From assembly GCA_964445715.1 (NCBI GenBank), contig CAYULJ010000002.1:1-33102 (forward strand): a stretch of DNA of 33,102 bases, in the 5' to 3' direction. Positions 5,586 through 29,437 of this stretch are shown here, piece after piece (position 1 is the stretch's first letter; the number at the start of each line of letters is the position of its first letter). Both the position numbers and the translations under genes were made by a program. The notes under the pieces were generated by a model, which was given only the letters and a program-made list of their open reading frames with translations, ran no database searches and was not told the origin of the DNA. This DNA is from an uncultured Planctomycetia bacterium. Lineage in GTDB: Bacteria; Omnitrophota; Gorgyraeia; Gorgyraeales; Gorgyraeaceae.

Positions 5586-5597
5586 ACATGCTCCTTT

Positions 5598-7525: not shown

Positions 7526-7546
7526 GATCAATAGTATTAGCGGGAA

Positions 7547-7696
7547 CTAAGCTCTTTTTTTCTTTCTCTTTAAGGCCTTTTTCATCCTATCCTTTGCCTG
7601 CTCACTCGTCCTGCCTTCTGTCAGATGCCCGCAGCATATAGCTGCAAAGCCCTTGCGATTCTTCATCTTGAACACCTGCATCCTTGACTTAGACAT
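7547..7696 (-). CDS. Small basic hypothetical protein (49 aa), absent from the ORF track
   Basis: MSKSRMQVFKMKNRKGFAAICCGHLTEGRTSEQAKDRMKKALKRKKKRA*, SD AAGGAG, fills the gap exactly. Confidence 0.6.
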   Translation of the reverse strand: MSKSRMQVFKMKNRKGFAAICCGHLTEGRTSEQAKDRMKKALKRKKKRA

Positions 7697-7756
7697 ACTC
7701 AACTCCTTCCCCTACGCCTTAAGTTTACACCAAAAATACCACTTTATGATGCTTTA

Positions 7757-8200: not shown

Positions 8201-8235
8201 GCCTTCCTCCTTCCGGCTCTTAGCCGTTCTTTTTA

Positions 8236-8655: not shown

Positions 8656-8665
8656 GCGATCCTCC

Positions 8666-9082
8666 TTATTCGCCTATAATTTTTACAAGGACTCTTTTAT
8701 TGCGCTGGCCATCGAATTCACCGTAGAAGATCTGCTCCCACGGCCCAAAATCAAGCTCACCACCTGTGACAGCGACCACGACCTCTCTGCCCATTATAGT
8801 CCTCTTTAAATGCGCGTCGGCATTATCTTCAGCAGTCAGATTGTGCTTATATTTCTTGACATTGTAAGGCGCGAGCTTCTCGACCCATTCCATAAAATCC
8901 TGATGCAGCCCGCTCTCATTGTCATTGATAAAAACGCTGGATGTGACATGCATGCTGTTTACAAGACACAGGCCCTCTTTTACATTGCTCTTCCTGAGGG
9001 CCTGCTCAACATGAGGCGTGATATTTATGATCTCGTACCGCTCTTTTGTATTAAGCGTCAGGTATTCCGTATGCGTCTTCAT
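8666..9082 (-). CDS. yjbQ: YjbQ/UPF0047 family (secondary thiamine-phosphate synthase)
   Basis: [19 protein letters not shown] and [13 protein letters not shown] motifs. Confidence 0.9.
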
Positions 9083-9143
9083 ATTGCCATTATATTAACA
9101 TAAGAGGGAGGCAAAGACAAACTGTTTTCATCAGGGAATAACT

Positions 9144-9184
9144 CTTAAGTTCACACTTTAACATTGTTGAAGTGTGAACTTAAG
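9144..9184. repeat. 41-bp palindrome, copy 3
   Basis: CTTAAGTTCACACTTTAACA-T-TGTTGAAGTGTGAACTTAAG; compensatory C-G at 9/33; symmetry extends to 9142..9186. Confidence 0.95.
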
Positions 9185-9189
9185 AGGAC

Positions 9190-9840
9190 TTATTGCTTGG
9201 CGGAGGATTTATTGGCGGAGGACTTGCCTTCCGAAGTATAAAAACCAGGGTAAAATTCCTTGTAAAGCAGCTTGCTAAATCTGGGCCTATCTTTATCACC
9301 GAGTTCAACTATTTTAATGCCGGCTTCTAAACCACTGTCTTCATCTCGTTTCTTGACCCAGCAGATGCGGCCAACCATTGTAATGGGGCTATAAGGTTCA
9401 TCAGGATCACTTATTGCAAACTCGAGCACCTCGCCTACTTTCCTGTATTCTTTTAACTCTATCCTGAACCCACCTTCGCATATATCTGATGCCGAACCTT
9501 CTTTGTACCTTTCATCTGACGATCCCTTGCGCCAAGAAAGCGTCACTTCTTTTTTAAATCTAGGATACATCCTCTGTTCTTTTTTTATTCTCAATTTCAC
9601 AAGTACCCTATTTTTTAACTCTTCAGCGTTGTATAGACCATCTCCCTTTATCTTTATCTCCTTCATTACGCTGATAAAGGCACAGATGATCTTATTGTTA
9701 GTCAGGCGTTTTCCTGTAGTGAATAAGGCATCCCTACCTATATTGTCTATGAATTCAAGCTCTTCGCGGGTGAGATTTACCACTACGCGGCCAGCCTTTA
9801 ATCCTCTATTAATATTATTGTTAATAGCCTTTTCTTCCAT
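9190..9840 (-). CDS. PilZ-domain protein with an N-terminal possible ribbon-helix-helix domain
   Basis: QRMYPRF (RxxxR) and DICEGGF (D-x-S/C-x-x-G) PilZ motifs; N-terminal domain call is inference. Confidence 0.8.
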   Translation of the reverse strand: MEEKAINNNINRGLKAGRVVVNLTREELEFIDNIGRDALFTTGKRLTNNKIICAFISVMKEIKIKGDGLYNAEELKNRVLVKLRIKKEQRMYPRFKKEVTLSWRKGSSDERYKEGSASDICEGGFRIELKEYRKVGEVLEFAISDPDEPYSPITMVGRICWVKKRDEDSGLEAGIKIVELGDKDRPRFSKLLYKEFYPGFYTSEGKSSANKSSAKQ

Positions 9841-9864
9841 GCCCTTTCACTTCCTTCGGCTCTC

Positions 9865-9919
9865 AAAAAAAATACCTTATTTTATCAGATTCCTGATCTG
9901 GAAAAATAAGGCATTTTTT
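9865..9919 (-). terminator. Terminator, expression platform of the upstream riboswitch
   Basis: Minus strand AAAAAATGCCTTATTTT...AAAATAAGGTATTTTTTT hairpin with U-tract, directly after the aptamer. Confidence 0.7.
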
Positions 9920-9920
9920 C

Positions 9921-10010
9921 TCTACGGTAGCTGGTCGGCCTTGCCCGCCTTTGGTGGATTTAGGCACCTAGCTTTGCGCCTCATCTTTTCAGATGATTTG
10001 CCCTTTTACG
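9921..10010 (-). ncRNA. c-di-GMP-I (GEMM) riboswitch
   Basis: GGGCAAATCATCT-GAAA-AGATGAGGCGCAAAGCT...CCTAA...CAGCTACCG matches the class-I consensus; lies upstream of the PilZ gene. Confidence 0.9.
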
Positions 10011-10039
10011 GAGCATTTATCAATTTGTCTTCTACTATA

Positions 10040-10067
10040 AGTGTACCATATTTTGCGAAATAGTCAA
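10040..10067 (-). promoter_or_regulatory. Sigma70-type promoter for the riboswitch-PilZ unit
   Basis: TTGACT-16-TACACT with TG extension. Confidence 0.5.
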
Positions 10068-10078
10068 ATTCTACAATT

Positions 10079-10978
10079 TCACATTTTCAGCAGTTCATAG
10101 CCTTTTACTATGCCTTCACATAGCATCTGGACTATATTATTGAAGTCGCCAAGGTCTCCTTTTGAAAGCGCCATGTAATACTGGTATCTGTCATCTATCC
10201 TTATGATAGCAGGAGCAAAACCCTGGCTCAAAAGCTGTGTAATCATGATCAGCCTGCCAACCCTGCCGTTTCCATCAAAGAACGGATGGATCGCCTCGAA
10301 TTCATAGTGGTCCCGGGCTATCTTCGTTATAGGGTCATGGCCGTAACTATTGATGTTTTTGGCAAATCTTCCCATCCTGAGCGGCACATCCTGGGCTGAA
10401 GGCAGGGCAATATCTGCGCTTGTCAGATTGACCGCGCCTGTCCTGTATTTGCCAGGCAATTTGTTATTGAAATTGTACATGACTATCTCGTGGAGCCTCA
10501 GTATATATTCAGCGTCTATCCTGAAACCAGCGCGGACTTTATCAAAAAGACACACAAGCGCATTCTTGTGGTTCACAGCCTCGAATATCTCGAAGAGTTC
10601 CTTGCCTTTGACCTTTTTCCCGGCAAAGGCCTTTTCTGTCTCCTTTATTGTCATGCGGCTCCCTTCTATGGCATTGGAATGATAGGTCATCTCAAGGATA
10701 AATCTCCCCCGGATTTCTTTGTTGTTATTCAATATTTTCAGCGGATCTTTGATCGTCTCTTTTAACTCCAGCACTGCATCTCTTAAGTCCACATATTCCT
10801 TGAAAAGCTGGTCAATATCTCGAATCTGAGCTGAGTGCGGCTCTATACCTCTATCAAGCCAGCGATACACAGTCTTATAGGTAACCTCCAGTCGTCTGGC
10901 AAGCTCGGAGCGCGAGATCCCTGTTGTCTGCAGTATTTTATTTATCTTCTCTTTTGCGCTTAACCTAAAACTAACCAT
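10079..10978 (-). CDS. Fic family protein with N-terminal HTH
   Basis: HPFFDGNGRVGR Fic motif, SNAIEG autoinhibitory motif, SRSELARRLEVTYKTVYRW HTH. Confidence 0.9.
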   Translation of the reverse strand: MVSFRLSAKEKINKILQTTGISRSELARRLEVTYKTVYRWLDRGIEPHSAQIRDIDQLFKEYVDLRDAVLELKETIKDPLKILNNNKEIRGRFILEMTYHSNAIEGSRMTIKETEKAFAGKKVKGKELFEIFEAVNHKNALVCLFDKVRAGFRIDAEYILRLHEIVMYNFNNKLPGKYRTGAVNLTSADIALPSAQDVPLRMGRFAKNINSYGHDPITKIARDHYEFEAIHPFFDGNGRVGRLIMITQLLSQGFAPAIIRIDDRYQYYMALSKGDLGDFNNIVQMLCEGIVKGYELLKM

Positions 10979-10990
10979 ATTTCACACTCC

Positions 10991-11058
10991 TATGTCTTAG
11001 GACATATGTCCTATCTTTATATACACTAAAAGTATACCATATGTCCTATATATGTCAA
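10991..11058 (-). promoter_or_regulatory. Fic promoter with operator-like repeats
   Basis: TTGACA-16-TATACT (11031..11058); perfect palindrome TAGGACATATGTCCTA 10998..11013; TATGTC at 10991, 11005, 11040 and 11051. Confidence 0.65.
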
Positions 11059-11069
11059 CAAAAACTCCC

Positions 11070-11110
11070 CTTAAGTTCACATTTTAACATTGTTGGATTG
11101 TAAACTTAAG
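11070..11110. repeat. 41-bp palindrome, copy 4 (internally degenerate)
   Basis: CTTAAGTTCACATTTTAACA-T-TGTTGGATTGTAAACTTAAG; symmetry extends through ACTCCC/GGGAGT to 11064..11116. Confidence 0.9.
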
Positions 11111-11246
11111 GGGAGTGGCTATTTCTTGGCCTTGCTGATTTTCTCCTGCAAAAACCCTGGGAATAATCCTGTTGCGGCGGACTCTTGATAATACAATGTC
11201 TAAAGCGGGAGAAACCACATCATTATTAACTGAGATCTCTTATGTT

Positions 11247-11924
11247 TCATCTTAAGATCCTCAAAATATTTGTTGCCTCTTGAGGCATACTGCCTTTACC
11301 TCGAATTAAAATCTCATCTGCTGACAAGGCCTGGCCATAAAGAGTTGCGTTGCCGTCCTTATGCTCCTTAACAACAGCTCCTTCTAATTTGACTCCGGCA
11401 AACAAGCCCCTGCTCCTAGAGTAAGAGAGAATCCCACCTTTTAACTGTGCATCTGTTGATGCCTCAGCATTCCTGCCAACAGGACCTGCTGACACGCTAG
11501 CATCTGCACCAAACTTGAATTTGCCCTGCAAAATCCCGTCTACGCTACGCCTGTTCATTATAAGGAGGACTATGTCTATTGCCTGGCCGCCTATCTGCCA
11601 ACCAAAACTCCCGCCTGCCAGAGTGAAGATAGCTGGGCTTGACCAACCAGCTCCACTTTTATTGCGCACCATGATTATACCCTGGCCGTATTTACCGCCA
11701 ATGCCCAAGCCAACGGATACTGTGTTTGGAAAAATAGCAATAGCCTCGCATTTACGGATAAGATCTTCCGGGATATTTTGGTCAGGCATTTCCTGTATAT
11801 CACCAAGCACCTTGTCGCATTCCTCTACTAGATCGACCCATTTATTATCGCCAGCCATCACATGACCACTAAGCGCGAAACTCATTATAAATATCCCAAA
11901 AATCAAAACCTTGCAAATCTTCAT
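11247..11924 (-). CDS. Lipid-binding SYLF (Ysc84-like) domain protein
   Basis: GGSFGWQIGGQ, ASVSAGPVGR and YSRSRGLFAGV motifs; signal peptide. Confidence 0.9.
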   Translation of the reverse strand: MKICKVLIFGIFIMSFALSGHVMAGDNKWVDLVEECDKVLGDIQEMPDQNIPEDLIRKCEAIAIFPNTVSVGLGIGGKYGQGIIMVRNKSGAGWSSPAIFTLAGGSFGWQIGGQAIDIVLLIMNRRSVDGILQGKFKFGADASVSAGPVGRNAEASTDAQLKGGILSYSRSRGLFAGVKLEGAVVKEHKDGNATLYGQALSADEILIRGKGSMPQEATNILRILR

Positions 11925-11938
11925 ACCTGCTTGCCTCC

Positions 11939-12703
11939 TTATCTTTTAACTGCTGTCACAAGCATCCTAGATGTCAAAAAACCATAATCTCTCTTCTGCT
12001 TATGCAAAGACACCCCTTTTTTTACAGAAACTGTGTCAAAGCCGGCTCTTTTCAAAAGACGCGTGATCTCATCTTTGCCGTATATCCTTTCACAATAAAA
12101 ACCATCTCTTAAAAGACCCTTCTTTTTTGATAGGACTATTTCCCTTGCCTTTACGATATCGCCTTCGAGCTGTCTCTGTCTGCACACTAGCACGTCACCA
12201 TCTGCTTCGTGCCAGGAAATTGGCTTAAGATTGCTTCTTACATGATTTGAATCGACCATGTCCAACAACAATCTGCCTCCCTTTTTCAATAATCTATAAG
12301 TCTCTTTCAATATGCGCCTGTTTTCTTTTTCATCTGGAAAATAACCGAATGAATTCGCCATTATGAATATCGCAGAGTAGTCGCCCGCTCTTAACCCACT
12401 GAAACGCGCATCACGACGCACGAATCTCACCTTGCAACGCGCCTCTTTTGCCAATCTCCTGCCGAGTTTAATAAGATAATCTGAAAAATCCAATACCGTG
12501 AGGTCATGATAACCTCGCTTCGCCAATTCCAAAGAATGTCTTCCGTGACCACCGCAAAGGTCAAGGATCCTATCTTTCTTATGCAACTTCAGGATCTTTT
12601 CCAATAATTCTGTCTCTCTGCGCGTCAAATCATCATCGCAGACACTCCTGGAATCCGTGATCAGATATATCTCATTAAAGAACTTCTTCCACCAATCCCT
12701 CAT
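11939..12703 (-). CDS. Class I SAM-dependent methyltransferase
   Basis: ILDLCGGHGRHS, NSFGYF and LKKGGRLLLD motifs. Confidence 0.85.
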   Translation of the reverse strand: MRDWWKKFFNEIYLITDSRSVCDDDLTRRETELLEKILKLHKKDRILDLCGGHGRHSLELAKRGYHDLTVLDFSDYLIKLGRRLAKEARCKVRFVRRDARFSGLRAGDYSAIFIMANSFGYFPDEKENRRILKETYRLLKKGGRLLLDMVDSNHVRSNLKPISWHEADGDVLVCRQRQLEGDIVKAREIVLSKKKGLLRDGFYCERIYGKDEITRLLKRAGFDTVSVKKGVSLHKQKRDYGFLTSRMLVTAVKR

Positions 12704-12710
12704 ACCTCTC

Positions 12711-12751
12711 CTTAAGTTTACATTTCAACAATGTTAAAGTGTAAACTTAGG
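12711..12751. repeat. 41-bp palindrome, copy 5 (supplies the stop codon of 12747..14123)
   Basis: CTTAAGTTTACATTTCAACA-A-TGTTAAAGTGTAAACTTAGG. Confidence 0.93.
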
Positions 12752-14123
12752 CAAAGCCGAACAAGCCGTCAGAGGCTATTAGCGCAGGTCGACCCTTCCA
12801 CGAGGCTAACTTTGCAATATCTTCTTCTTCTTTGCTGATCTGGACATACTTACCAAGCTGGCCTTGTAGCCATAATTCCTCTAAAACCAATGCGTCTTTC
12901 CATAAGTTTTGAGCGTATTGTTTCAATTGCTCGACATGTACCTCAGTGATAATGCGCGGCCTTAGCGTGTTCATCAAAGGCCCTAGCAGGTACACATTAC
13001 CAATCTCTATGGATCTCTTGTCCATCTCCTGTTGTATTTTTAAGACAAAGTCAAAGCCTAAGCTTAAAATAGCGTCATTGACCCTCTTGACCGCCTCTTT
13101 TATAGGCATGTTCGAACGCAGTATTGCGCTACTCTGGACACCTCCACCAGAACCGACATTAGTAGGAATGCCGCCGAATCTCGTCACAAAGCCGATAAGC
13201 CCGACATCTGTCACAAAACAACGAAAATCAGTCTGCCAGCGCTTTATAAAAAGTCTTTTCTTATCTTTGCCTATCCACGGAAATTCCTCTGCCCATAAAT
13301 CCATAGGCACAAGCGGCTGCACAATATAATCTCCGGCCTTCAATGCGCGCTCAATACCTGCATCCCTATCAGGCTCTTTGTGTCCTATGATAATACCTTT
13401 TCCAGAATAGCCATGAACTGGTTTCAATATAATACCAGCCCAGTTATCCTTGGCCCATTTCACCAGGTCTGGAATATTTTCACCATCAGGCCCGATTGTA
13501 GCGCGCTTATAAAACTGCCTTGTCCATGGCGTCCTCTTGATAGTCGTATCTGACAATCTGTTTTTATACTCTGAAGTCACTATTTCAAAAATGCCTTTTG
13601 CACCAACAGGCTCCATGCCTCTTGGATTCGTAACCAGACCCTGCTTTATAGCCGCCAAGAGCCCATCAAGATTATGCGATTTTTTTAGTCTCACAATGAC
13701 ATTGTTGTTAAAATCCAAGAAAACAGCTGTTAACCTGTCCCCTCCAACGCAGACCTTATCGTCTTTCAGTTCTAGGCCAGTTGGATCAACTAAAACCGCC
13801 TTGACACCTGGAAGGCTATTGAGGTATTTGGTAAATCTTATATTCTCGCCTACTTTATCTAATGTTTCTTTTTCCGCTACAATAGCTATAAAAGGAGCTT
13901 TTTTGGGAAAATTCTTTCGATGCGCTCTAAGAAGAAGTTCTGCAAAATTCGGCACAGGGTTCAATATGGGATCATCGAAATCCAACTCAATATCTAATCC
14001 ACTCTTCTTCTTTATCTTTTCCCAAGCAACCCTGCCTATTTCCTGAGCCATCTTCTGGTAATCCCATCCTCCAGGACTACCCAAATTCCACTCAGAATGA
14101 TATCCTAAAAACTCTTTTGTCAT
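12747..14123 (-). CDS. Glutathionylspermidine-synthase/circularly permuted ATP-grasp-like ligase
   Basis: EWNLGSPGG, ILKPVHGYSGKGIIIG, YIVQ, TDFR and PTNVGSGGG motifs. Confidence 0.65.
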   Translation of the reverse strand: MTKEFLGYHSEWNLGSPGGWDYQKMAQEIGRVAWEKIKKKSGLDIELDFDDPILNPVPNFAELLLRAHRKNFPKKAPFIAIVAEKETLDKVGENIRFTKYLNSLPGVKAVLVDPTGLELKDDKVCVGGDRLTAVFLDFNNNVIVRLKKSHNLDGLLAAIKQGLVTNPRGMEPVGAKGIFEIVTSEYKNRLSDTTIKRTPWTRQFYKRATIGPDGENIPDLVKWAKDNWAGIILKPVHGYSGKGIIIGHKEPDRDAGIERALKAGDYIVQPLVPMDLWAEEFPWIGKDKKRLFIKRWQTDFRCFVTDVGLIGFVTRFGGIPTNVGSGGGVQSSAILRSNMPIKEAVKRVNDAILSLGFDFVLKIQQEMDKRSIEIGNVYLLGPLMNTLRPRIITEVHVEQLKQYAQNLWKDALVLEELWLQGQLGKYVQISKEEEDIAKLASWKGRPALIASDGLFGFA

Positions 14124-14133
14124 ATTTGCAAAC

Positions 14134-14174
14134 CCTAACTTTACATTTCAACAACGTTAAAGTGTAAAGTTAGG
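14134..14174. repeat. 41-bp palindrome, copy 6
   Basis: CCTAACTTTACATTTCAACA-A-CGTTAAAGTGTAAAGTTAGG; compensatory changes at pairs 2/40 and 6/36; abuts the stop at 14175. Confidence 0.92.
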
Positions 14175-15710
14175 CTAGTCTTGATTCTCTAATCTCTTTT
14201 TAATCAATCCAAACGGTGCTTCGCCGCCCTGCAAAAGCAAATCATGAAACCTCTTTAATCCCAATTTAGAAGAAAATTTCTGCCTTAATCTATCGATCTC
14301 GAATTTACCAATAGTATAACACAACTGATATCCTGGCGAAAGCGCGTAATGCCTAAACATAAACTTGGCTATCTTTGGCTCATAGCCTAGATCCATAAGA
14401 AGGCCCTCGGCCTCTTTAAACTTTAATCTATTGATCCTTATACCGACATCCAACATTGCCCGAACCGCCCTCCAGGCCTGACGTTTTAATCCTAATAACT
14501 TATGTACCGGGTCTTTTACATATCCTAATCTATCAATAAGCCTTTCGCTATAAGAGGCCCAGCCCTCGTAAAATAAAGGGGATTCTATCTGCTGCCTTAT
14601 GGGATTTTTCATGCTCCGCCTTATCGAATCCAATAAGTGATGGCCTGGATATGTCTCGTGCGCGCTTACAAATAAATATTCGTTGTGCACATTGCTAAAA
14701 TCAGCTGTTATGTAAAAATAAGCTGGTTCGCGCCTGTCCTCTGTAGCAGGAGAGCTATAAGACGCTGAAGCCCTTATAGGCCTCAGAAACTGTGGAGTAA
14801 ATTTCACGGCTATCTCCTGTGTACCAGGAATCGTAATGACGTCTTTTTCTTTGATAAATTCCTTTAATTTTTTTATCTCATCAGTATAAACAGCCAATAG
14901 CGCCTCAGGTGTCTTAGCAGTTATGCTGTATTTGGAAAGCACGGCTTTCCATCCCGCTCCGGTTCTTACTCCGCTGGCAACGTCTTTTAATTCTTCGAGT
15001 GTCTTACGATATTCTTCGTATGCTATTTCAAAGATCTCTTTGAGGCTCTTATCACAAGAAAAAGAATCTCTTAATATATCCTCTATAAGAACCCTGTCCT
15101 TAATTATGACTTCTTTTGAAGGCATTTTTATCAAAAATCTTCTAAACTCCTCCAATGCATCAATTGCTTTTTTGATCGACCTGGTCTCTGCGCTGGGAAA
15201 ACTAGCAGAAGCGAGGTATACTATTGAAGCGTCTGCCATCTCTCTGGCAACTTCAAGGTAAGCCGAAGGCACATTTTTTAAATTCCTCCTGCCCTCTTCC
15301 AGCAAGCGCGGTATTTGAGAAATCTTTTCATGGAACACATTGCCTGGTCGACAACTGCCCAAAAGAGAGGCCTTCAGGTAAATGCCAGGGTCTATCTGCC
15401 ATATCTTGACTTGATCGAACTCTCTTAAAAATGTCGATAAACTCTGCCTAAGGAGGGTAAAATCGATTTGCGCTTCGATATCTAAATCAGGAAGGTTTAT
15501 TTTCTCCAGAGCACTTCTAAGACTTTTAACGCGCGAAACATCATGTTTTATTTTATCTTCATCAAAACCGTCCAGGATATCTAGATATTCAATGGCCTTC
15601 TTTGCCCTAGGGAAAAAATAAAATTCGTCGCTCAAGCACATCACAGGATAACTCTTTGCCATATAATCAAAATAATCCTGCGCTATCTCTGCAACCCCGG
15701 ACTTCCCCAT
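14175..15710 (-). CDS. DUF885 family putative metallopeptidase
   Basis: HETYPGHH, YEGWASYSE, PGYQLCYTIG and LKRFHDLLL motifs. Confidence 0.88.
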   Translation of the reverse strand: MGKSGVAEIAQDYFDYMAKSYPVMCLSDEFYFFPRAKKAIEYLDILDGFDEDKIKHDVSRVKSLRSALEKINLPDLDIEAQIDFTLLRQSLSTFLREFDQVKIWQIDPGIYLKASLLGSCRPGNVFHEKISQIPRLLEEGRRNLKNVPSAYLEVAREMADASIVYLASASFPSAETRSIKKAIDALEEFRRFLIKMPSKEVIIKDRVLIEDILRDSFSCDKSLKEIFEIAYEEYRKTLEELKDVASGVRTGAGWKAVLSKYSITAKTPEALLAVYTDEIKKLKEFIKEKDVITIPGTQEIAVKFTPQFLRPIRASASYSSPATEDRREPAYFYITADFSNVHNEYLFVSAHETYPGHHLLDSIRRSMKNPIRQQIESPLFYEGWASYSERLIDRLGYVKDPVHKLLGLKRQAWRAVRAMLDVGIRINRLKFKEAEGLLMDLGYEPKIAKFMFRHYALSPGYQLCYTIGKFEIDRLRQKFSSKLGLKRFHDLLLQGGEAPFGLIKKRLENQD

Positions 15711-15721
15711 AACCCCTCATC

Positions 15722-15762
15722 TTTAAGTTTACACTTTAACATTGTTAAAGTGTAAACTTAAG
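15722..15762. repeat. 41-bp palindrome, copy 7
   Basis: TTTAAGTTTACACTTTAACA-T-TGTTAAAGTGTAAACTTAAG; ends just before the SD of the DUF885 gene. Confidence 0.95.
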
Positions 15763-15871
15763 CGCCTACGTTATACGGTTATATCGTCCAATGGATTTTA
15801 AAACTTGTGAGGTGATGATATTAAAAGGTAAGTACGTTCTCAATTTGCGTCTTTACTGCTTTTTTGCTCTC

Positions 15872-16393
15872 TTATTCCTGTTCTCTCTTATCGCTTGCTT
15901 TCTTCTTAACTGAGATCTTTCCAAGGTCTACGCCTTCAATGCCTTCCCTATATGTCAATGCCCTATTGTCATCGTATATCTTCAAGTCCCAATCCTGCAT
16001 TGCCATCTTGAATTCGTCTATCTCATCCTGCAGCTTTTCCATTCTCCTCCTAAGCCTGCTGACTTTTAAATCACTGATCTCGCCTTTAAGATCCGAAACT
16101 GCCCTATTGTATCCTGCTTTCCAATCCTTCAGGATCTCCTGCATTGACTCCAGCTGCGACAAGACCTTCCTCATCTCTATCTTGTTCTCATCTGTCGCGC
16201 TCGACAAGGCAATATCAATGTCCTTCACGCCTTCTTCCAGTTTCTTGAATTTATCCATGGCAAGCTGTGCTTGGCTATCTAAATATAGTGTCTTTTCCTT
16301 GTAATCATTGTATATAAAATACCCCATAACATATGTAGCGATCAACAAAGCAAACAAAACTACTATTGAAATTTTCAACATACCTTTTCCCAT
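15872..16393 (-). CDS. Membrane-anchored coiled-coil hypothetical protein
   Basis: N-terminal TM helix, heptad-rich body; promoter TTGACT-17-TAAAAT at 16429..16457. Confidence 0.7.
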   Translation of the reverse strand: MGKGMLKISIVVLFALLIATYVMGYFIYNDYKEKTLYLDSQAQLAMDKFKKLEEGVKDIDIALSSATDENKIEMRKVLSQLESMQEILKDWKAGYNRAVSDLKGEISDLKVSRLRRRMEKLQDEIDEFKMAMQDWDLKIYDDNRALTYREGIEGVDLGKISVKKKASDKREQE

Positions 16394-16465
16394 TATCCTT
16401 AACCTCTCATAACCAGTTATTAGTATTTATTTTACACCTTATTGTCTAAATAGTCAATAAAAGAG

Positions 16466-16525
16466 CTTAGGTTCGCATACCACTTCGTGGCACAGGCTTC
16501 CCCAATGTTAAAGTGTGAACTTAAG
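16466..16525. repeat. Palindrome copy 8, left arm interrupted by a 19-nt insert
   Basis: CTTAGGTTCGCA-[TACCACTTCGTGGCACAGG]-CTTCCCCA-A-TGTTAAAGTGTGAACTTAAG; the right arm is intact and coding. Confidence 0.8.
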
Positions 16526-17470
16526 ACGGAATATCAATAGCCATGCAGGGATGGTTATTATGGCGAGTAAATGCGAATAGACTATCATGCCGCTCAAAAA
16601 TCTATTGTCAGCATTCACGTATTGTCCTATCACGACAAGGCTTACAGCAGCAGGCATTGTCGCCTCTAAAAAAATAAAAAACTTCAAAGCGTACGGCAGC
16701 GGCAGACACCTAATTAAACCAAGCGCTATAATAGGCAAGATTATCAGCTTAGCGAACATGCAAGTCGCCAATGCGCCCCAGTTTTCGGATTTAAATCCGC
16801 GATATGCCGCAAGTTGCGCGCCAAGCACTATCAATGCTAAAGGAAAACTCGAATCGCCCAGCATGGCCAATGGGTCAAATACCAGATTATGGACACTGCC
16901 TTTGCCCATTAAAAAAACCCATACGATTGATAATATCGTAACTGTGACAGGCGGATTTAAAACAGCACTGAGCTTGAAATTTCCCTTGAGATTTCCTGAG
17001 AGAAACGCAGGGCCAAATGACCATATGAGTACATTAAAACCCATAAGAAAGAGAAATATGTAGACAAGGACCTTGTCGCAAAACGCCCCCGTGCAAACAA
17101 AAGCCACTAAAGTCATGGGCAAGTACCCTGAGTTCTGAAATGCGCAAGACATCATAAATTCCCGGCCTGACTTAAAACCCTTCAAAGGCCTTTGGAATAA
17201 ATATCCTACGCCCAGGCCTATAAAAGCCATGATCATTGAGCTAATAGGCAATATCCACCATTTCGGGAACACAAAAGGATCGAATGTAGATGTTATTTTG
17301 GTAAAGATCAAGGCAGGGAAGCACGCCCAGATCAATATGCTGCTAAGATCTCCTATAGAGTCTCTTTTTATAATCTTCTTCGCATAAAGCGCATAGCCTA
17401 TGGCGAGCAAAAAGAATATCTTCAATATGCCATATGCTATGGAATGAAAATTATAAAACCCTTCTGTCAC
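16508..17470 (-). CDS. AEC (auxin efflux carrier) family transporter
   Basis: FPALIF, FQNSGYLP, LNPP and EATMPAA motifs; about 10 TM helices. Confidence 0.88.
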   Translation of the reverse strand: MTEGFYNFHSIAYGILKIFFLLAIGYALYAKKIIKRDSIGDLSSILIWACFPALIFTKITSTFDPFVFPKWWILPISSMIMAFIGLGVGYLFQRPLKGFKSGREFMMSCAFQNSGYLPMTLVAFVCTGAFCDKVLVYIFLFLMGFNVLIWSFGPAFLSGNLKGNFKLSAVLNPPVTVTILSIVWVFLMGKGSVHNLVFDPLAMLGDSSFPLALIVLGAQLAAYRGFKSENWGALATCMFAKLIILPIIALGLIRCLPLPYALKFFIFLEATMPAAVSLVVIGQYVNADNRFLSGMIVYSHLLAIITIPAWLLIFRLKFTL

Positions 17471-23116: not shown

Positions 23117-23231
23117 GCTTCAAAAAGACGTTCGTCCGCCCCAGCGAAGCGTCCATCGCTCCATTTTATTTTTTGCTCGCCTAAGTTTACACTTTAACAA
23201 TGTTAAAGTGTAAACTTAGGCACCCATGCCC
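23117..23231. repeat. Composite repeat: arm + palindrome copy 11 (23180..23220) + arm stub
   Basis: 23117..23179 closely matches the reverse complement of 28327..28389; core CCTAAG...CTTAGG is perfect; GCACCCATGCCC stub matches 28276..28286 reversed. Confidence 0.92.
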
Positions 23232-23232: not shown

Positions 23233-24171
23233 TCACTGAAAATATTCAAAATACTCGCTGTCCGAACTGAAAATCACAGTAGTGTCACCATCGATTGTAT
23301 TTTTATACGTATCCAGGGTCTTTAAGAAAGAATAGAATTCTGGATCTCTGTTGTATGCATCTGCGTATACGCTGATAGCCTCTGCGTCTGCCTTGCCTTT
23401 TATTTCTTCTGCTGATTTATACGCCTCTGACCGTATCTTTTTTAATTCCTTGCCCATCTGCCCTGATATCTCTGCCTTCTTTCCCTGTCCTTCTGAACGA
23501 TACCTTTCTGCTGCCCTTTTTCTTTCAGATATCATCCTTTCGTATACCTTATCCCTGACCTCCTGCACGTAGTTTATCCTTTTTATTCTGACATCCACCA
23601 GCTCGATCCCGTATTGAGGGGCCATCTCTGAAGCCTGTTCTAATATCCCTCTCGTGATCTCTTCTCTCCCGACCACCACCCTATCAAGCGCATCATCAGA
23701 AGCCTTTATCTCATCCTGCTCGCTTATGATTTGTGATTCAATGATCCTGTTTGAATCCCTGACCACCTCCACTAAATTGTGATTCGTAATATAATCTCTT
23801 GTCGCAGAGTCTATTATATCATCCAGCCTTGCATGCGCGCCTGTCTCATTTGTAACAGATTGCATGAATTTAAGGGGGTCTTTGATCTTCCATCTAGCGG
23901 TTGTATCGACCCATATATATCTTTTATCTTTGGTCGGGATCTGATTAGGGTTCCCGTCCCACTGAAGAAGCCTTTTATCAAAATAATTCGCGTGCTGAAT
24001 AAAAGGCAATTTGAAATACAAGCCCGCTTTCATTGCCGGGTCGCCAACAGGCTTGCCAAATTGGGTAACGACCACCTGTTGTGTCTCATCGACAATATAA
24101 AGCGCTCCGCTCATAAAAAGTAACATCGCTACAACAAAAAGACCTATTGCAGTATTTATCAACAGCTTCAT
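23233..24171 (-). CDS. hflC: FtsH protease modulator HflC
   Basis: SPFH domain, DVRIKRI, RMISER and DPEFYSFL motifs; follows hflK. Confidence 0.93.
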   Translation of the reverse strand: MKLLINTAIGLFVVAMLLFMSGALYIVDETQQVVVTQFGKPVGDPAMKAGLYFKLPFIQHANYFDKRLLQWDGNPNQIPTKDKRYIWVDTTARWKIKDPLKFMQSVTNETGAHARLDDIIDSATRDYITNHNLVEVVRDSNRIIESQIISEQDEIKASDDALDRVVVGREEITRGILEQASEMAPQYGIELVDVRIKRINYVQEVRDKVYERMISERKRAAERYRSEGQGKKAEISGQMGKELKKIRSEAYKSAEEIKGKADAEAISVYADAYNRDPEFYSFLKTLDTYKNTIDGDTTVIFSSDSEYFEYFQ

Positions 24172-25175
24172 CTCGCACCCCCTTCTTTATTCAGTTTCAG
24201 AAGAGGCAATATACCGTCCTGAGCAGAAGGATCTATGATGTATTTATATCCTGCTTTTGGTAATACCTCGTTCATGGTCTCAAGATACATCCTCTTGCGA
24301 GTCACTTCCTTTGCTTTATCATAAGACTCTCTCGTATCTATAAATCTTTGAGCGTCTCCTTTGGCCCTGTTTACTCTTTTTAAGGCATAGCCCTCGGCTT
24401 CTCTTATAGTCTTTTCTGCCTCGCCTTTGGCAGCCGGAATAGCCTTGTTATAAGCCTCCCATGCCTCATTTATCACTTTTTCTTTTTCCTGTTTTGCCTC
24501 GTTCACTTCGTTAAAAGACGGCTTCACTTCATCAGAAGGATTGACATCCTGCAATTTAACCGTAACGATCTGTATACCGCTCTCGTAAGAATCAAGTATA
24601 TCCTGAAGCCTGTCCTGGACTTCCTGATTTATTTCCACTCTTCTCGTGGTCAAGACTTCACTCACAGAGCTGTTCCCTACAGTCTGCCGCATCACTGCTT
24701 CTGATATGTTACGGATCGTCTCACGTGGATCCCTTACGTTAAATAACAATTTTACAGGGTCTTTTATCTTAAACTGCACTATCCACTCTACGACCAGCAC
24801 GTTTAAGTCCCCTGTAAGCATCAAGGATTCATCAAAATATTCCCTAGGCGAATATCTGGTCTTCACCCCTGCCTTCAATGTCTTGAATCCGAATTCTTCC
24901 TTAAAAATATAACGGACCTTGACCTTGTTGACCTTTTCGATCCCCATCGGTATCTTGAAATGAAGTCCTGGGTTTGTCGTACGGATATATTTACCGAATC
25001 GCCTTATAACCCCGACCTCGTCAGGTCCTACTGAGTATAGGCCTGAAAAAATAAATATCAATACAAAAAAACCGCCTACTGCCGGAACTATATACTTTTT
25101 AATATCAGGCAAGCTAGTTCCTTCCTTTTTCTTCCCTCCGGGTTCCAAGAGATCTTCCGGTGTATTAAATTGCAT
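24168..25175 (-). CDS. hflK: FtsH protease modulator HflK
   Basis: SPFH domain, MLTGDLN, LQDVNP and VTRKRMYLETM motifs. Confidence 0.93.
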   Translation of the reverse strand: MQFNTPEDLLEPGGKKKEGTSLPDIKKYIVPAVGGFFVLIFIFSGLYSVGPDEVGVIRRFGKYIRTTNPGLHFKIPMGIEKVNKVKVRYIFKEEFGFKTLKAGVKTRYSPREYFDESLMLTGDLNVLVVEWIVQFKIKDPVKLLFNVRDPRETIRNISEAVMRQTVGNSSVSEVLTTRRVEINQEVQDRLQDILDSYESGIQIVTVKLQDVNPSDEVKPSFNEVNEAKQEKEKVINEAWEAYNKAIPAAKGEAEKTIREAEGYALKRVNRAKGDAQRFIDTRESYDKAKEVTRKRMYLETMNEVLPKAGYKYIIDPSAQDGILPLLKLNKEGGAR

Positions 25176-25201
25176 ATCCCCCTCCTCCTCTGTTTAAAGG
25201 A

Positions 25202-26263
25202 TTAAAACCTCCACGTCAGTCCGGTCTGTAAACTTACATCCGGGCTCGAAGCAGCACTTATATTTTCCGTGATACCAAAATGACAAGATATATCGCTCCT
25301 CTCCTTCCATGTATAATTAAATGCTATGCCAAAATCATGGCTATCATTATCTAAGGGATTAGTCTCGCTATGTGGATAAGGAGTGGTGTTTCCTGTGACC
25401 TGAGTCACTATAGAGAACCTTTTCGTAAAACAATATTCTAATGCCAGAAGATACGAATAGACATGCTCGCCTATGCCCAACTCATCAAAAACTTTAGGCT
25501 TTTCTATGGCAACAATATTAGCACCCCCGTAGAGAAAAAGCCTATCAAAAAAACCTTTATCCACCAAGACGCCAAAACCGTAATCAAATTCCCCGCTGCC
25601 GAGCATGTCATCTTCATTTGCTGTTGGAAATTTAACAGACGATCTTAAAGAAAAATTAGGCCAGAACCAGCCACTGTCTCGCAGCAATTGATATTTTGCA
25701 TTAAGCATGACATCGCCGATGCCTTCTACGGATTTATTCATGGAAATCACATTCCTATTATTATATATAAAAGAATAATCAAATTCGTTCGACCCCTGTC
25801 TTTCCCTTGATCGAGGCGTCCTGGCTCCGACCCCATCCTCAAAACCCTCTATAACATCATCTAAGTAACCGCTAGAAAAACTTGTATAGGGTACTTCTAA
25901 GCCTATTTCGAGATTATCGTAAAGCCCATACCTAAAATCAAGAGTCACAGTAGAGACTTCAAGATCTATGTCTATCTGGTAAAGTGATGAGGCAGGAGTA
26001 AAGGCGCTTACAGTGATATTCGAGACTGTGTAGTTTGCATTTGTCGTAAATTTGTTACGCTCTCTGACTGATGCCTTATCCGGGACCATCTGCAGATAGA
26101 TCAGGTGCAAAGGCATTTGATTTCTTATTCTCAAAGGGCCGCCATTATTATACTCACTTTCTTCATCCCAATCATCCGCAAACGCAAAACTATTAGTAAA
26201 AATAAAAAATGATACCGTGAGAAACGATAAAAACACCAAGATGCCAAAACTTTTTTTCTTCAT
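25202..26263 (-). CDS. DUF3187-like outer-membrane beta-barrel protein
   Basis: Signal peptide, GPLRIRNQMP, GYLDDVIEGF, KFPTA...GSG and C-terminal WRF. Confidence 0.7.
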   Translation of the reverse strand: MKKKSFGILVFLSFLTVSFFIFTNSFAFADDWDEESEYNNGGPLRIRNQMPLHLIYLQMVPDKASVRERNKFTTNANYTVSNITVSAFTPASSLYQIDIDLEVSTVTLDFRYGLYDNLEIGLEVPYTSFSSGYLDDVIEGFEDGVGARTPRSRERQGSNEFDYSFIYNNRNVISMNKSVEGIGDVMLNAKYQLLRDSGWFWPNFSLRSSVKFPTANEDDMLGSGEFDYGFGVLVDKGFFDRLFLYGGANIVAIEKPKVFDELGIGEHVYSYLLALEYCFTKRFSIVTQVTGNTTPYPHSETNPLDNDSHDFGIAFNYTWKERSDISCHFGITENISAASSPDVSLQTGLTWRF

Positions 26264-26299: not shown

Positions 26300-26440
26300 C
26301 TTAAGTTTACACTTTAACAATGTTAAAGTGTAAACTTAAGCACCGTGCCCGCAAAAAATAAAACGGAGCGAGGCCCACATTTTCAAAAAACTAACACTGG
26401 CCGAGCGTCTTTTTGAAGCTTGCTCTGGCTGTCGAAAACT
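26300..26440. repeat. Composite repeat: palindrome copy 12 (26300..26340) + chimeric arm
   Basis: Perfect core followed by CACCGTGCCCGCAAAAAATAAAACGGAGCGAGGCC...GCGTCTTTTTGAAGC, modules shared with 28227..28411. Confidence 0.9.
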
Positions 26441-26495: not shown

Positions 26496-26633
26496 AGCCG
26501 ATAAGGGCAAACCCTAGAGAAATCAGGGGGCGCAAAGCCAACAGACCTAAGTTACTAGTGATAAGCCGTAACTCATTGCAAATAAAAGAGTTAGTTAGGC
26601 AATCAATAGTAATATGGTGGCTGGGTTACCGAG
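26496..26633 (+). ncRNA. c-di-GMP-I riboswitch with a long stem extension, antisense to the GGDEF gene
   Basis: GGGCAAACCCTAGA-GAAA-TCAGGGGGCGCAAAGCC...GACCTAA-[~60-nt stem]-ATGGTGGCTGGGTTACCGA matches the class-I consensus. Confidence 0.85.
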
Positions 26634-26639: not shown

Positions 26640-26677
26640 AAAGCCGACGCTACTGGCCTTTATCGGCTTTCTTTATT
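26640..26677 (+). terminator. Putative terminator hairpin after the riboswitch
   Basis: AAAGCCGA-N15-TCGGCTTT followed by CTTTATT; overlaps the GGDEF stop codon. Confidence 0.5.
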
Positions 26678-28113
26678 ACCCTCTTATATATCTCGTTAAA
26701 CTCACTCTCAAGAACAAAAAACGGCGCAACATTACATCCAGTAAAATTCTTTATTTCGTTTATAGCCTCGATATCCTTGGGATTTAGCATAACAACGCTT
26801 ATCACGTTCTTTTCCTGATTAATCGGAATAATATTGCGCTCCTTGATAAGCCTTGCCGGTATATTCTTTGCGTAGCCCTCTAATTTTTCATCTTTATCTA
26901 AAGACCTTATATCATAATGCGGTATATTAAGTTGTGATTCCAATGCCCTCACTATATCTCCCGAAGAAGCATAACCAAGATCAATGATGCTTTGGCCTAT
27001 TCTCTGGCCTGTACTCCAATGTTTATCCAAAGCCATCTCGAGTTGATGAATATCTAAGATCTGGGACTCCAAAAGGATCTGCCCTAAAGGCCTATAGTTA
27101 AACTTTATCTCTGCTGTAAATTCTTTTCGGACAGATTTGCCAGGCGATTCTTCTATAGGGATAAATTCTTTTTTTACTTGCTTCCTCCGATTGACTAAAA
27201 AATTGCTACCAGGAAGAGTCTTCAAGTGACGCTTTATCTCTGTTATTATTTCCATTAGCTCAACGATGTTCTGTAATTTGAATTCGCTGTTGTTTGCTAT
27301 TGCTACCGAGACACTCATAAGCGGCATCTCTACTACGTTTCCCCTGCGATCCTTGGCTACAATATGACCCCTATCCCTGTCATCCGCGCTGTAATGAAAA
27401 GAGGTCAGTCTGCTAAAATCCAGTATTGATTCAGAGGCTATCAATCTCTCTCGCTTAGGCGTAGTGACTACGACAAAATCATCGCCGCCTATGTGTCCGA
27501 CAAAATCACTTTTATTTCCATGTTTCTTTACAGTATTTGATATGATATAAGCTGTGTGCCTTATTACGCTATCCCCTTTTCTGTATCCGTATTTATCGTT
27601 GAAACATTTAAAATTATCAATGTCATAATACGCCACTGAAAAGATCGCGCCTTCCTCGATCTTTGCCTGAATGATCTTTTCTATCTGGCGATTCCCGGGA
27701 AGCCTTGTCAGCGCGTTTGCGTGGAGCTGATGCGTTATGCGGCGCAATGCCATCTCCATCCTCACTTCTAGATCAATAGGGTCAGGCGGATTTACGATAT
27801 AATCATCCACGCCCTGCTCTAGCTCGAGCATCTTCTTTCTGATCCGCTTCTTGTCTATAAGGATTACTACGGGGATATGAGCGGTGAGAAAGTCTTCCTT
27901 GAGGGCTTTGGAAAGCTGCAACCCGTCCATTTCCGGCAGGTTAAAATCGACGATTATTATATCTGGCTGCTCGCGTCTTACTGTCCCAAGGACTGACAAC
28001 CCATCCGTTGCAGTGACGACTTCGTAATCCCATGCCTTCAACAGATACGTCAATATATCTACGATATTCTTGTCGTGCTCGGCTAATAATACCTTTCTAT
28101 TTCTCGTTGCCAT
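26650..28113 (-). CDS. Response regulator-GGDEF-MshEN fusion (putative diguanylate cyclase)
   Basis: REC (PDIIIVDFNLPEMDG), DIDNFKCFNDKYG, GHIGGDDF, then RPLGQILL...RIGQSIIDLG MshEN repeats. Confidence 0.88.
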   Translation of the reverse strand: MATRNRKVLLAEHDKNIVDILTYLLKAWDYEVVTATDGLSVLGTVRREQPDIIIVDFNLPEMDGLQLSKALKEDFLTAHIPVVILIDKKRIRKKMLELEQGVDDYIVNPPDPIDLEVRMEMALRRITHQLHANALTRLPGNRQIEKIIQAKIEEGAIFSVAYYDIDNFKCFNDKYGYRKGDSVIRHTAYIISNTVKKHGNKSDFVGHIGGDDFVVVTTPKRERLIASESILDFSRLTSFHYSADDRDRGHIVAKDRRGNVVEMPLMSVSVAIANNSEFKLQNIVELMEIITEIKRHLKTLPGSNFLVNRRKQVKKEFIPIEESPGKSVRKEFTAEIKFNYRPLGQILLESQILDIHQLEMALDKHWSTGQRIGQSIIDLGYASSGDIVRALESQLNIPHYDIRSLDKDEKLEGYAKNIPARLIKERNIIPINQEKNVISVVMLNPKDIEAINEIKNFTGCNVAPFFVLESEFNEIYKRVIKKADKGQ

Positions 28114-28119
28114 ATTATC

Positions 28120-28148
28120 ATTATAAATTAAAAAAAATCCACGGTCAA
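28120..28148 (-). promoter_or_regulatory. Sigma70 promoter directly before the ATG (leaderless-type)
   Basis: TTGACC-17-TATAAT with the ATG 6 nt after the -10 box; no SD. Confidence 0.65.
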
Positions 28149-28226
28149 CCAGAATAAGTAGTATTTGAAAAAATTATTACGCTTCTTAAGCCAAAAGAGG
28201 TTCTGCTTCTTCTTGTGGCTCTACAG

Positions 28227-28411
28227 TTGTCTTTCCAACCTGAGCAGTGCTTCAAAAAGCCTCTTTATTTTTTGCGGGCATGGTGCTTAAGTTTACACTT
28301 TAACAATGTTAAAGTGTAAACTTAAGCGAGCAAAAAATAAAACGGAGCGAAGGCCGCCTCGCTGGGGCGGACAAGCGTCTTTTTGAAGCACTGCTCAGGT
28401 TGGAAAGACAA
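28227..28411. mobile_element. 185-bp MITE/REPIN-like nested inverted-repeat element containing palindrome copy 13 (28286..28326)
   Basis: Perfect 33-bp terminal IR (28227..28259 / 28379..28411), inner 12-bp IR (28264..28275 / 28330..28341), central 41-bp palindrome; mobility is inferred. Confidence 0.7.
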
Positions 28412-28454
28412 AAGTATAGTTGCAAGGAAAGTATATTCTGCTATAATGGATGTT

Positions 28455-29153
28455 ATGAAACTTTCGATTTTGATTCCCGCGTACAATGAAGAGCGTTTTA
28501 TACAAGAGATAATGTCAGAAATAAAATCTCTCGATCTTTCGCGCCTGGGGATACCGGAAAAAGAGGTCATCCTTATAAACGACGGCTCTACTGATAGGAC
28601 AGTAGAAAAAGCCTCGAATGTCATTCCGAATATAAAAATCATACACCACATAAAAAACCAAGGCAAAGGCGCAGCGCTTACATCAGGCATCCCCCACGCC
28701 ACCGGCGACATAATAATAATACAGGACGCGGACCTGGAATACAGACCATCTTTATATCCCGAGCTTTTAAAACCGATTGTCGAAGGAGGAGCCGATATCG
28801 TATACGGGTCCAGATTCTTGGAGAAGCCTCATCCAGAAAACATGAGGATGTCGTATTTTCTAGCTAACCGCTTTGGGACGTTTTTAGTAAACATTCTGAA
28901 CAGTATACATCTTACTGACCCTATGACATGTTTTAAGGTCTTTAGAAAAAAGACATTGGAAGGCATAAAGCTTACCTGCAAAGGCTTTGGAACTGATGCG
29001 GAGCTTACTGCGAAAGTCACCAAGAAAGGTTTTAAGATAAAAGAAGTGGCTGTGCCTTACAAGGCAAGGACTTTCAAGGAAGGAAAAAAATTTCACCCTC
29101 TTTGTTCTCTTAATGTACTCTGGTCTATAATAAAGTACTCACTCCGAGGCTAA
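28455..29153 (+). CDS. Glycosyltransferase family 2 (DPM1-like)
   Basis: [33 protein letters not shown] and VYGSRF motifs; the track start at 28383 lies in the repeat. Confidence 0.92.
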
Positions 29154-29437
29154 CCGAATAATCCTTTGGCCTTTAACTTACCTGTTGTTTTTTTGTAATC
29201 ATCGAAATCAATAAATGTCAGATTAGGTCTTTTATTTTTTATTTTTGTTATTTCTCTGGTCCGGGAAGCAATGTATTTAAAAGGTGTTCCGCATTTCGGG
29301 CAACTAGTTGCTTTTGAATAATCTATGCCAAGCTCTCTGCACTTAGCGCAATCTCCCGTAGACTCACCTACTATAAGAAGATGAGCCATAACATCGTTTA
29401 TCTCAATCTTTGTCCATACGCGTATAAAATCAGACAT
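29150..29437 (-). CDS. Zinc-ribbon hypothetical protein
   Basis: CAKC...CPKC; the track's upstream extension runs through a terminator hairpin, so ATG 29437 is preferred. Confidence 0.65.

Follow-up and report, generated by a model that had tools for sequence, protein, structure and literature searches.

Architecture of the element and its locus

The element considered here occupies 185 nt (28227-28411) of a 33,102-nt stretch of DNA, contig CAYULJ010000002.1 of an uncultured bacterium of the Omnitrophota, which is referred to as the window. The genome that holds the window (G000) comprises 1.59 Mb in 153 contigs; positions without a prefix are those of the window, and other loci are given as contig:position. 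On its left the element is bordered by a gene for a response regulator with GGDEF and MshEN domains, and on its right by a gene for a family 2 glycosyltransferase (GT2). An earlier note, made from the letters of the window, had placed the element between divergent promoters of these two genes, which agrees with the two promoter-like sites predicted in the spacer by matches to the consensus (Table 1). Both sites face away from the element, so that, if these are the promoters, it is part of neither transcript. Any host effect at this locus would act via promoter spacing or DNA structure.

The outermost feature of the element is a perfect 33-bp inverted repeat (28227-28259 and 28379-28411), which extends to 54 nt at 85%. 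Within the window the 33-mer matches its own two arms only, and no such repeat was obtained in 100 shuffles. Further inwards follow a 12-bp inner helix and, at the apex, a 43-nt palindrome with 11 matches in the window within ≤3 mismatches (6 places, both strands counted) and none in the shuffles. Folded as single-stranded DNA, the whole element forms one rod of -74.8 and -71.6 kcal/mol on the two strands (z = -15.6 for each), and none of 200 shuffles was as stable. A GC hairpin, CCGCCTCGCTGGGGCGG, is present at 28354-28370 on the right arm only; read on the minus strand, the side hairpin to which it belongs is followed by a T run, with a terminator-like match at 28363-28346 (-). The nested inverted repeats, the one-sided hairpin and the rod-like fold, all of them described in the earlier note, are thus borne out with their coordinates. 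The same is true of its remark that no clear target-site duplication is visible, since the best flanking direct repeat, a 7-mer, lies at the 95th percentile of controls with mismatched flanks.

Table 1. Features of the element, its two half copies in the window and the neighbouring genes
Feature	Position	Strand	Remark
Left arm, closing stem	28227..28259	+	perfect inverted repeat; 28227-28248 copy-specific, opening with the family stem-base motif GTCTTTCC
Inner 11 nt of left arm, GCTTCAAAAAG	28249-28259	+	conserved in family B; covered by 10-21 hits
Inner helix, left side, TTTATTTTTTGC	28264..28275	+	12-bp perfect inverted repeat; helix 3 of family B
Junction motif GCGGGCATGGTG beside the palindrome	28274..28285	+	CACCATGCCCGC on the minus strand; the same motif borders the hairpin inserted in layer C
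REP-1 palindrome, apex of the element	28285..28327	.	perfect 21+1+21 (28285-28305 / 28307-28327)
Inner helix, right side, GCAAAAAATAAA	28330..28341	+	pairs perfectly with 28264-28275 (12 bp)
One-sided side hairpin (GAGCGA ... stem-loop ... AAGCG)	28345..28377	+	helix 4 of family B
Right arm, closing stem	28379..28411	+	exact reverse complement of 28227-28259
Half copy (palindrome, right half, arm), inverted relative to the element	23117..23224	-	108 nt, 92% identity to 28282-28389
Half copy (palindrome, CACCGTGCCCGC, canonical right half of B, arm)	26300..26419	+	nhmmer E = 1.5e-14, model positions 56-127
Promoter-like site of the response-regulator/GGDEF gene, TTGACC-17-TATAAT	28120..28148	-	11/12; 79 nt left of the element
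Promoter-like site of the GT2 gene, TTGCAA-16-TATAAT, TG present	28420..28447	+	10/12; 9 nt right of the element; kept in G001
Response_reg + GGDEF + MshEN gene	26650-28113	-	left of the element
Glycos_transf_2 (GT2) gene	28455-29150	+	right of the element

Public contigs from two studies confirm an arm together with its flank on each side of the element with 0 differences (X1, 27400-28256 and 28382-29200; X4, 28088-28256, 28300-28411 and 28382-28623), and the right arm is additionally covered by X1 at 28321-28411. No listed public contig piece spans the whole element; the pieces stop in or beside the core palindrome. This, together with the 153 contigs of the genome, is what would be expected if assembly of the genome from metagenomic data had joined two contigs chimerically at the repeated palindrome. 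Such a join is hardly conceivable in view of the outer 22 nt of each arm, which are unique in G000 yet exactly complementary to each other, and from which it follows that both halves belong together. It is further opposed by sister copies with the same layout in G000 as well as in the sister species, and by the confirmation of each arm-flank junction in two studies. Contigs from 4 runs contain no joint that skips the element, but they break in the palindrome. The 17 public runs listed include no RNA run; 16 of them, from 7 studies, are DNA.

The core palindrome

Judged by its sequence, the core of the element is one copy of a REP-type (repetitive extragenic palindromic) palindrome restricted to the genus, here called REP-1. 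Counted on a 39-nt centre, G000 holds 360 copies within 6 substitutions, and 13-14 of these lie in the window at a spacing of 1.4-4 kb. With ≤3 mismatches, a scan of 31 genomes returned 302 copies in G000, 23 in G001 (the sister species, and the one other species of the genus in the comparison) and 0 in the 29 other relatives. REP-1 thereby has the properties that define a REP: it is short, repetitive and palindromic, occurs in many copies, and is mostly extragenic, as judged from the lists of open reading frames (ORFs) for the window and a few contigs.

Three Y1_Tnp genes of G000, on C5, C97 and C22, encode RAYT-like proteins. All three match the NCBIfam profile REP_Tyr_transpos along its whole length, with 62-65 bits against a cut-off of 80. 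The gene at C5:25560-26351 (Y1_Tnp, 35.6 bits; 64 bits against REP_Tyr_transpos, below the cut-off of 80) is single-copy and carries REP-1 on both sides, 21 nt upstream and across its stop codon. By our estimate, with about a quarter of the intergenic gaps occupied by REP-1, flanking of this kind would arise by chance at about 6% per gene. The C5 protein is a candidate for the REP-1 transposase. As for the gene on C22 (592-1200, -), it lies beside a 231-aa ORF within C22:547-2145, and a 14-17-bp inverted repeat, GGGGACGTCTTACC, encloses the two; this motif recurs once more, with 1 mismatch, at C22:4416, and the contig has a run of N at about 1914-1923.

Two repeat families within one element

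When the 185-mer was compared with G000 by BLAST, the core was covered by about 730-780 hits (both strands), the inner parts of the arms by 10-33, and the outer 22 nt by 2-3, all of them the element's own. Besides the element itself, about 10 places carry any flank that matches it, most of them at a copy of the core (C81, C87, C82, C30:14626, C9, C46, C57, and 23117 and 26300 in the window); at C8 a flank fragment is found without a full core. The sequence around the palindrome belongs to a second, older family, B. A profile search of G000 yielded 13 full and 3 partial matches to family B as well as 3 REP-containing ones, among which is the element. Canonical copies of B lack the palindrome. 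Between the two sides of the closing stem they have, in this order, AAAAAGCCTYTTTRTTTTGCG, an apical hairpin that varies and measures about 35 nt, GCCTGTCAAAAYAAAACGGAGCGAGGCC, a loop and GGCCGAGCGTCTTTTTGAAG. Elements of family B measure about 160-185 bp, with a conserved part of 127 nt. The stem ends of the element, TTGTCTTTCC and GGAAAGACAA, fit the family pattern GTCTTTYC ... GRAAAGAC; its 33-bp repeat is therefore the closing stem of family B and no private oddity.

Family B has a far wider range than the palindrome at its apex. Among 38 genomes from 17 genera of one taxonomic family, it is present in 19 genomes and 10 genera, with up to 21 matches per genome (G008, G018). A signature pattern for B was found in G000 and in 4 of 10 further genomes of the taxonomic family; outside it, 390 genomes yielded 2 single hits, as many as a reversed-pattern control gave, and viral contigs had 0 matches.

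REP-containing copies make up a subfamily, B2, whose members are the element, C57:1594-1732, the two half copies of the window and some fragments. They have common junctions (TTTTTTGCGGGCATGGTG, palindrome, CGAGCAAAAAATAAAACGG) and a distinct side hairpin, and in comparison with canonical B the palindrome stands in for the apical hairpin as well as for an otherwise invariant GCCTGTC block. In G001 there are at least 3 B2 copies (C1:153958-154113, C1:231149-231270 and C1:102711-102795). Identity to the element reaches 92-94% in C57 and in G001 C1:153970, and each full B2 copy has its own complementary stem.

In combination, these observations lead us to read the 185-bp element as a composite, a non-autonomous DNA hairpin element in which two repeat families are nested, REP-1 inside family B; we put the probability of this reading at roughly 0.68. 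The simplest history is a single nesting event in the ancestor of the genus followed by the spread of B2. In that ancestor a copy of REP-1 would have taken the apical position of a B element in place of its hairpin, and the composite, with identical junctions in all copies, would then have spread as a unit, each copy with a stem of its own.

The earlier note had classed the element as a small, non-coding, hairpin-forming repeat of the REP, REPIN, ERIC or MITE kind, which holds, and had gone on to propose that it represents the palindrome family at full length, the solo 41-mers (the core palindrome alone) being its derivatives or else independent inserts into it. The second option is the one favoured by the data. 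A full-length master form from which the solo copies are worn down is very improbable, given the 2-33 hits at flank positions against about 730-780 for the core (both strands), the presence of B in 9 other genera where the 41-mer was not found, the different apical hairpin that canonical B has at the palindrome's place, and the occurrence of the palindrome in other contexts, namely at the apex of layer C and around a second REP family (see below). It does account for the roughly 10 places with partial flanks, most of them at a core copy, and some solo copies can derive from composites. On whether the arms recur in the genome, one of the two points on which the earlier note had staked its view, the answer is divided: the outer 22 nt occur nowhere else, while the inner 11 nt and the interior belong to family B.

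A side observation concerns the half elements 23117-23224 and 26300-26419, which stand in inverted orientation around a three-gene block (23233-26263), an arrangement that resembles a rearrangement at palindromes or a composite unit. By their N-terminal sequences, the first two genes of this block may be HflK/HflC-like.

Conserved interior and free terminal stem

The structure of family B was analysed on an alignment of 49 copies (A1) with 27 predicted consensus pairs, 16 of which change on both sides. Paired cells amount to 92.6%, against 81.3% in shuffles, and changes on both sides to 173 against 51, with 0 of 500 shuffles reaching either value; sliding the partner by 1-3 columns lowers pairing to 36-56%. 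Examples are pair 32-83 in inner helix 3 (A-T 35, G-C 11, C-G 2) and, in helix 4, the pairs 93-147 (C-G 36, T-A 12) and 96-144 (G-C 37, A-T 7). An unpaired block, GCCTGTCAAAA, is invariant in 49 of 49 copies from 10 genera.

The closing stem behaves differently: it measures 17-33 bp, longer in a few copies, and can hardly be aligned between copies. Its pairing was tallied over 1430 stem positions in 47 copies (7 of 54 were dropped for a weak best stem), of which 1338 are Watson-Crick. Among the remainder are 26 G-T and 18 A-C positions, so that wobble is rare and shows no strand bias. Many stems open with GTCTTTYC and close with GRAAAGAC.

These data bear directly on an alternative in which family B would be a structured RNA, either a non-coding gene in multiple copies or a motif acting in cis, with the stem protecting or processing the RNA. 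Covariation in 16 of 27 pairs, beyond both the shuffled and the slid controls, the invariant unpaired blocks across 10 genera, what we read as a possible tandem G-A motif in helix 4, and the terminator-like minus-strand side hairpin with its T run would all suit an RNA. An RNA would, however, tolerate G-U on one strand, and wobble accounts for only 26 of 1430 positions with no bias of G-T (26) over A-C (18) to match. Orientation relative to neighbouring genes is likewise mixed (about 5 versus 4 in G000, by our reading of the ORF lists), the present copy lies upstream of both promoter-like sites, the REP-containing subfamily dispenses with the invariant GCCTGTC block yet has perfect stems, and copies vary between sister species and come with flanking direct repeats. 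Rfam 15 contains no matching family; it returned only sub-threshold hairpins for the element, such as a miRNA precursor at 37.7 against 140 bits, and nothing for five sister loci. An RNA role is, on balance, quite unlikely. The pairing, equal on both strands, in elements of mixed orientation, with the present copy upstream of both promoter-like sites and no match in Rfam, instead suggests that complementarity is kept at the DNA level. The element would accordingly act and move as DNA and not as an RNA, in the form of single strands that fold into hairpins or cruciforms, and its stems may be kept complementary by selection or by correction from arm to arm.

Three other possibilities were considered and set aside. 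A conserved peptide is not encoded within B, as indels shift the frame between copies, and a sigma-70 promoter is not present, the minus-strand TTGACA having no -10 box at 16-18 nt (both read by eye on the consensus). An integron attC array does not apply either, the copies being dispersed among housekeeping genes.

Presence and absence in the sister species

Individual loci were compared between G000 and G001, whose flanking sequences are 68-89% identical. At two canonical B copies of G000, on C69 and C140, G001 has clean empty orthologous sites; direct repeats, about 16 nt long at C69 and 14 nt at C140, border the G000 copies, and each takes in the start codon of the gene downstream. Where G001 has its B2 copy at C1:153958, G000 has a 20-nt mini-palindrome (C99) that matches the outer 9-10 bp of both arms; at the place of the B2 copy at C1:231149 it has a solo REP-1 (C56). 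At the locus of the element itself, where invariance among relatives would have told against the earlier note, G001 has a solo palindrome and an unrelated spacer. The C18, C39 and C42 loci, which carry B in G000, have all or part of the palindrome in G001, and the left arm at C42 has a homologous counterpart there. In none of the 8 informative comparisons is presence kept at the orthologous place. To judge from the two empty sites, family B has probably moved.

Orthologous flanks were not found in G001 for C57 and C45, and for C147 on one side only. The G048 locus had no match in the 5 genomes of its genus. G018 and G002 each carry B in one and the same spacer; stem and subfamily differ between the two copies, which may be orthologous or independent. 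Stem-only palindromes with a GTCTTTYC cap and no B interior, which would point to insertion of B into existing hairpins of that type, were not found; 4 of 4 strict matches contain B.

The same comparisons weigh on the proposal that the element is a host-domesticated DNA site, a protein-binding or cruciform module placed between genes for regulation or chromosome organization, for which mobility is past history. It draws on the interior kept across genera, on the 88-92% identity of B2 copies in the two species compared with 68-89% for flanks, on the stems of the two direct-repeat copies, which have 0 mismatches in 41 pairs although the repeats around them already differ at 2 of 26 aligned positions, and on the right end of the present element, 9 nt from a promoter-like -35 box. 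Against it, orthologous presence is not kept in the 8 informative comparisons; copies also lie beside unrelated housekeeping genes in either orientation, and no binding protein or phenotype is known. We regard domestication as rather unlikely.

At C140:1720-1885 and C69:1815-1995, B stands just upstream of a start codon and duplicates it, and at C140 the AGGA-like sequence that precedes the retained start codon comes from the element's end.

Candidate mobilizing enzymes

Several observations weigh against the composite mobile element proposed here. No mobilizing enzyme was identified for family B, the only candidates seen being the three RAYT-like Y1 (HUH) proteins. Homologues of the C22 protein are present in 36 of the 38 family genomes, including genomes without B, so that there is no co-occurrence; and none of 8 loci that were read has B abutting a RAYT-like gene, although one copy lies 1.5 kb away beyond another gene. 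In the IS200/IS605 family, transposition of the Y1/RAYT type is not known to leave a target-site duplication, and the 14-16-nt direct repeats therefore fit the candidate enzymes poorly. RVT_1, DDE_Tnp_1 and rve gave no match in either of the 2 genomes of the genus, which are 90-92% complete, with insertion sequence (IS) elements often failing to assemble. Cas1 (PF01867) was found in 0 of the 38 family genomes, while the control was positive in 7 of 14 reference genomes. Clear flanking direct repeats are present at 2 of the 45 copies scanned, and the element is not among them. The empty sites of G001 could be precise deletions in G001, with no insertion in G000. Finally, the invariance of GCCTGTCAAAA is stricter than a decaying selfish repeat needs and could mean a host or RNA function.

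No ORF lies between B-like ends among the nhmmer hits. A casposon-derived element, considered on account of the 14-16-nt direct repeats (casposon repeats measure 14-15 bp), was rejected, 0 of 38 genomes having Cas1.

Nesting elsewhere in the genome

Nesting is general in G000. Six B copies (C19, C30, C39, C46, C90 and C147) occupy the apex of layer C, a third conserved scaffold about 95 nt long, which is empty at C36:7310-7404, holds a longer, different insert at C57:4000-4330 and a short hairpin only at C123:880-1090. Like family B, layer C has a copy-specific outer stem and a covarying side hairpin, the loop of which, CCCAGCG[A/T]G, is fixed. Inserts at its apex are found at one position, next to CACCGTGCCCGC and a 7-nt direct repeat, CGCTCGT; at C30:14626, REP-1 sits in the apex position of the right arm.

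A second REP family with a 17-mer core (50 hits) comprises 19 inverted doublets of about 75 nt, which are REPIN-like (C3:20447-20518, for example), and 12 singlets, none of them in the window. It is present on both sides of the RAYT-like gene C97:644-1315 (C97:504-529 and 1328-1353). Of its doublets, 13 of 19 have a REP-1 arm within 30 nt, compared with 5% of 2000 random places, and these 13 lie inside or beside arms of the 41-bp palindrome. Other palindromes, at their apex or centre, might be preferred landing sites of hairpin elements.

A bolder extension of the composite reading, which we hold to be unlikely, is that the mobility of families B and C and of REP-1 is set by structure and not by terminal sequence. 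Hairpins would home to the apex or centre of palindromes and give concentric, 'Russian-doll' elements, with each move duplicating a target of about 14-17 bp, and the enzyme would be RAYT-like HUH or one not recognized here. Under this proposal a target duplication at an ordinary site yields long direct repeats, as on C69 and C140, and one at a palindromic site becomes an extra stem, as at the G001 copy whose outer 9-10 bp match the mini-palindrome of the empty G000 site; this would explain stems that are private yet perfect.

On C19, a B copy contains an additional hairpin-rich insert of about 65 nt in the loop of its side hairpin (C19:17163-17227), a further level of nesting; the same contig has a 3969-aa ORF (5058-16967).

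Comparison with known repeat systems

REP/REPIN-RAYT systems are the first to be compared. Short extragenic palindromes in hundreds of copies are common to both, as are hairpin units with preserved pairing; distinct single-copy Y1 transposase-like genes, each flanked by what may be its own repeat (here C5 with REP-1 and C97 with the second family), would be a further parallel, and the occurrence in several related genera would fit vertical persistence. A REPIN consists of two inverted REP copies with a short spacer, whereas the 185-bp element has one central REP-1 between arms that come from a different family, one whose interior is conserved and asymmetric. Its terminal stem, moreover, varies freely in sequence between copies, two sister copies have 14-16-nt direct repeats, which transposases of this kind are not known to make, and the RAYT-like proteins score 62-65 bits, below the NCBIfam cut-off of 80. 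Bertels and Rainey (2011; PMC3116915) describe REPs as attracting insertions and deletions within a REPIN as able to leave one long palindrome; they also cite IS insertion into REPs and name ERICs (enterobacterial repetitive intergenic consensus sequences) and NEMIS, the former as presumed non-autonomous elements.

The resemblance to the ERICs, or intergenic repeat units (IRUs), of Enterobacteria is one of architecture only (an imperfect palindrome of 127 nt with insertion variants). Both are imperfect palindromes of about 127 bp, the length of the conserved part of B, both are intergenic in either orientation with sequence kept across genera, and both have longer variants through insertions at fixed internal sites, here REP-1 at the apex. 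The ERIC size and its internal-insertion variants are reportedly those of Wilson and Sharp in 2006. Family B is probably unrelated to ERICs in sequence and comes from another phylum, and its closing stem, which lies outside the conserved part, is specific to each copy. ERICs are described as being transcribed within mRNAs, whereas the present copy lies upstream of both promoter-like sites.

With the miniature inverted-repeat transposable elements (MITEs) of bacteria, such as Correia/NEMIS, RUP and Nezha, family B has in common that it is small, non-coding and multi-copy with terminal inverted repeats (185 bp, a 33-bp repeat and 13 full B copies in G000), differs in presence between genomes, and has two copies with flanking direct repeats. 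In a MITE the transposase reads the terminal repeats, which are conserved for that reason; in family B, by contrast, it is the interior that is conserved, and variation is greatest at the termini. The direct repeats, at 14-16 nt, are unusually long. The conserved ends that a MITE shares with an autonomous IS are likewise missing: stems differ between copies, no autonomous partner with the same ends was found, and the genus has no match to DDE_Tnp_1, rve or RVT_1. Bacterial interspersed mosaic elements (BIMEs) and mosaic REP clusters also have palindromic repeats that serve as landing sites and form composite intergenic mosaics. Unlike theirs, the mosaics seen here are concentric, hairpin within hairpin at the apex instead of side by side, and at least one composite, B2, has multiplied.

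By title and abstract, literature on palindromic repeats of Omnitrophota and on ERICs gave no description of these elements. Within the REP/MITE/ERIC kind the element stands out for a conserved interior combined with a free but paired terminal stem, for its concentric nesting, and for the long direct repeats that two copies carry. G000, a streamlined genome of 1.6 Mb from an uncultured lineage, has at least four hairpin repeat families that interlock, besides three RAYT-like genes. In family B the interior is kept across ten genera, whereas the terminal stem may change freely provided that it pairs, the reverse of ends read by a transposase. If nesting and long direct repeats do reflect the mode of movement, the system would be a test case for how REP-type repeats are copied, a question that is open even for E. 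coli and Pseudomonas. At a practical level, the repeats end many of the contig pieces compared here, and they could mislead the annotation of promoters and small RNAs.

Further features of the window

Two c-di-GMP-I (cyclic di-GMP) riboswitch aptamers are the only Rfam matches of the window above the gathering threshold, at 9923-10012 (-) with 71.6 bits and at 26496-26633 (+) with 58.9 bits. Closely downstream of the half element 26300-26419, the second of them overlaps the opposite-strand response-regulator/GGDEF/MshEN gene at its 3' end.

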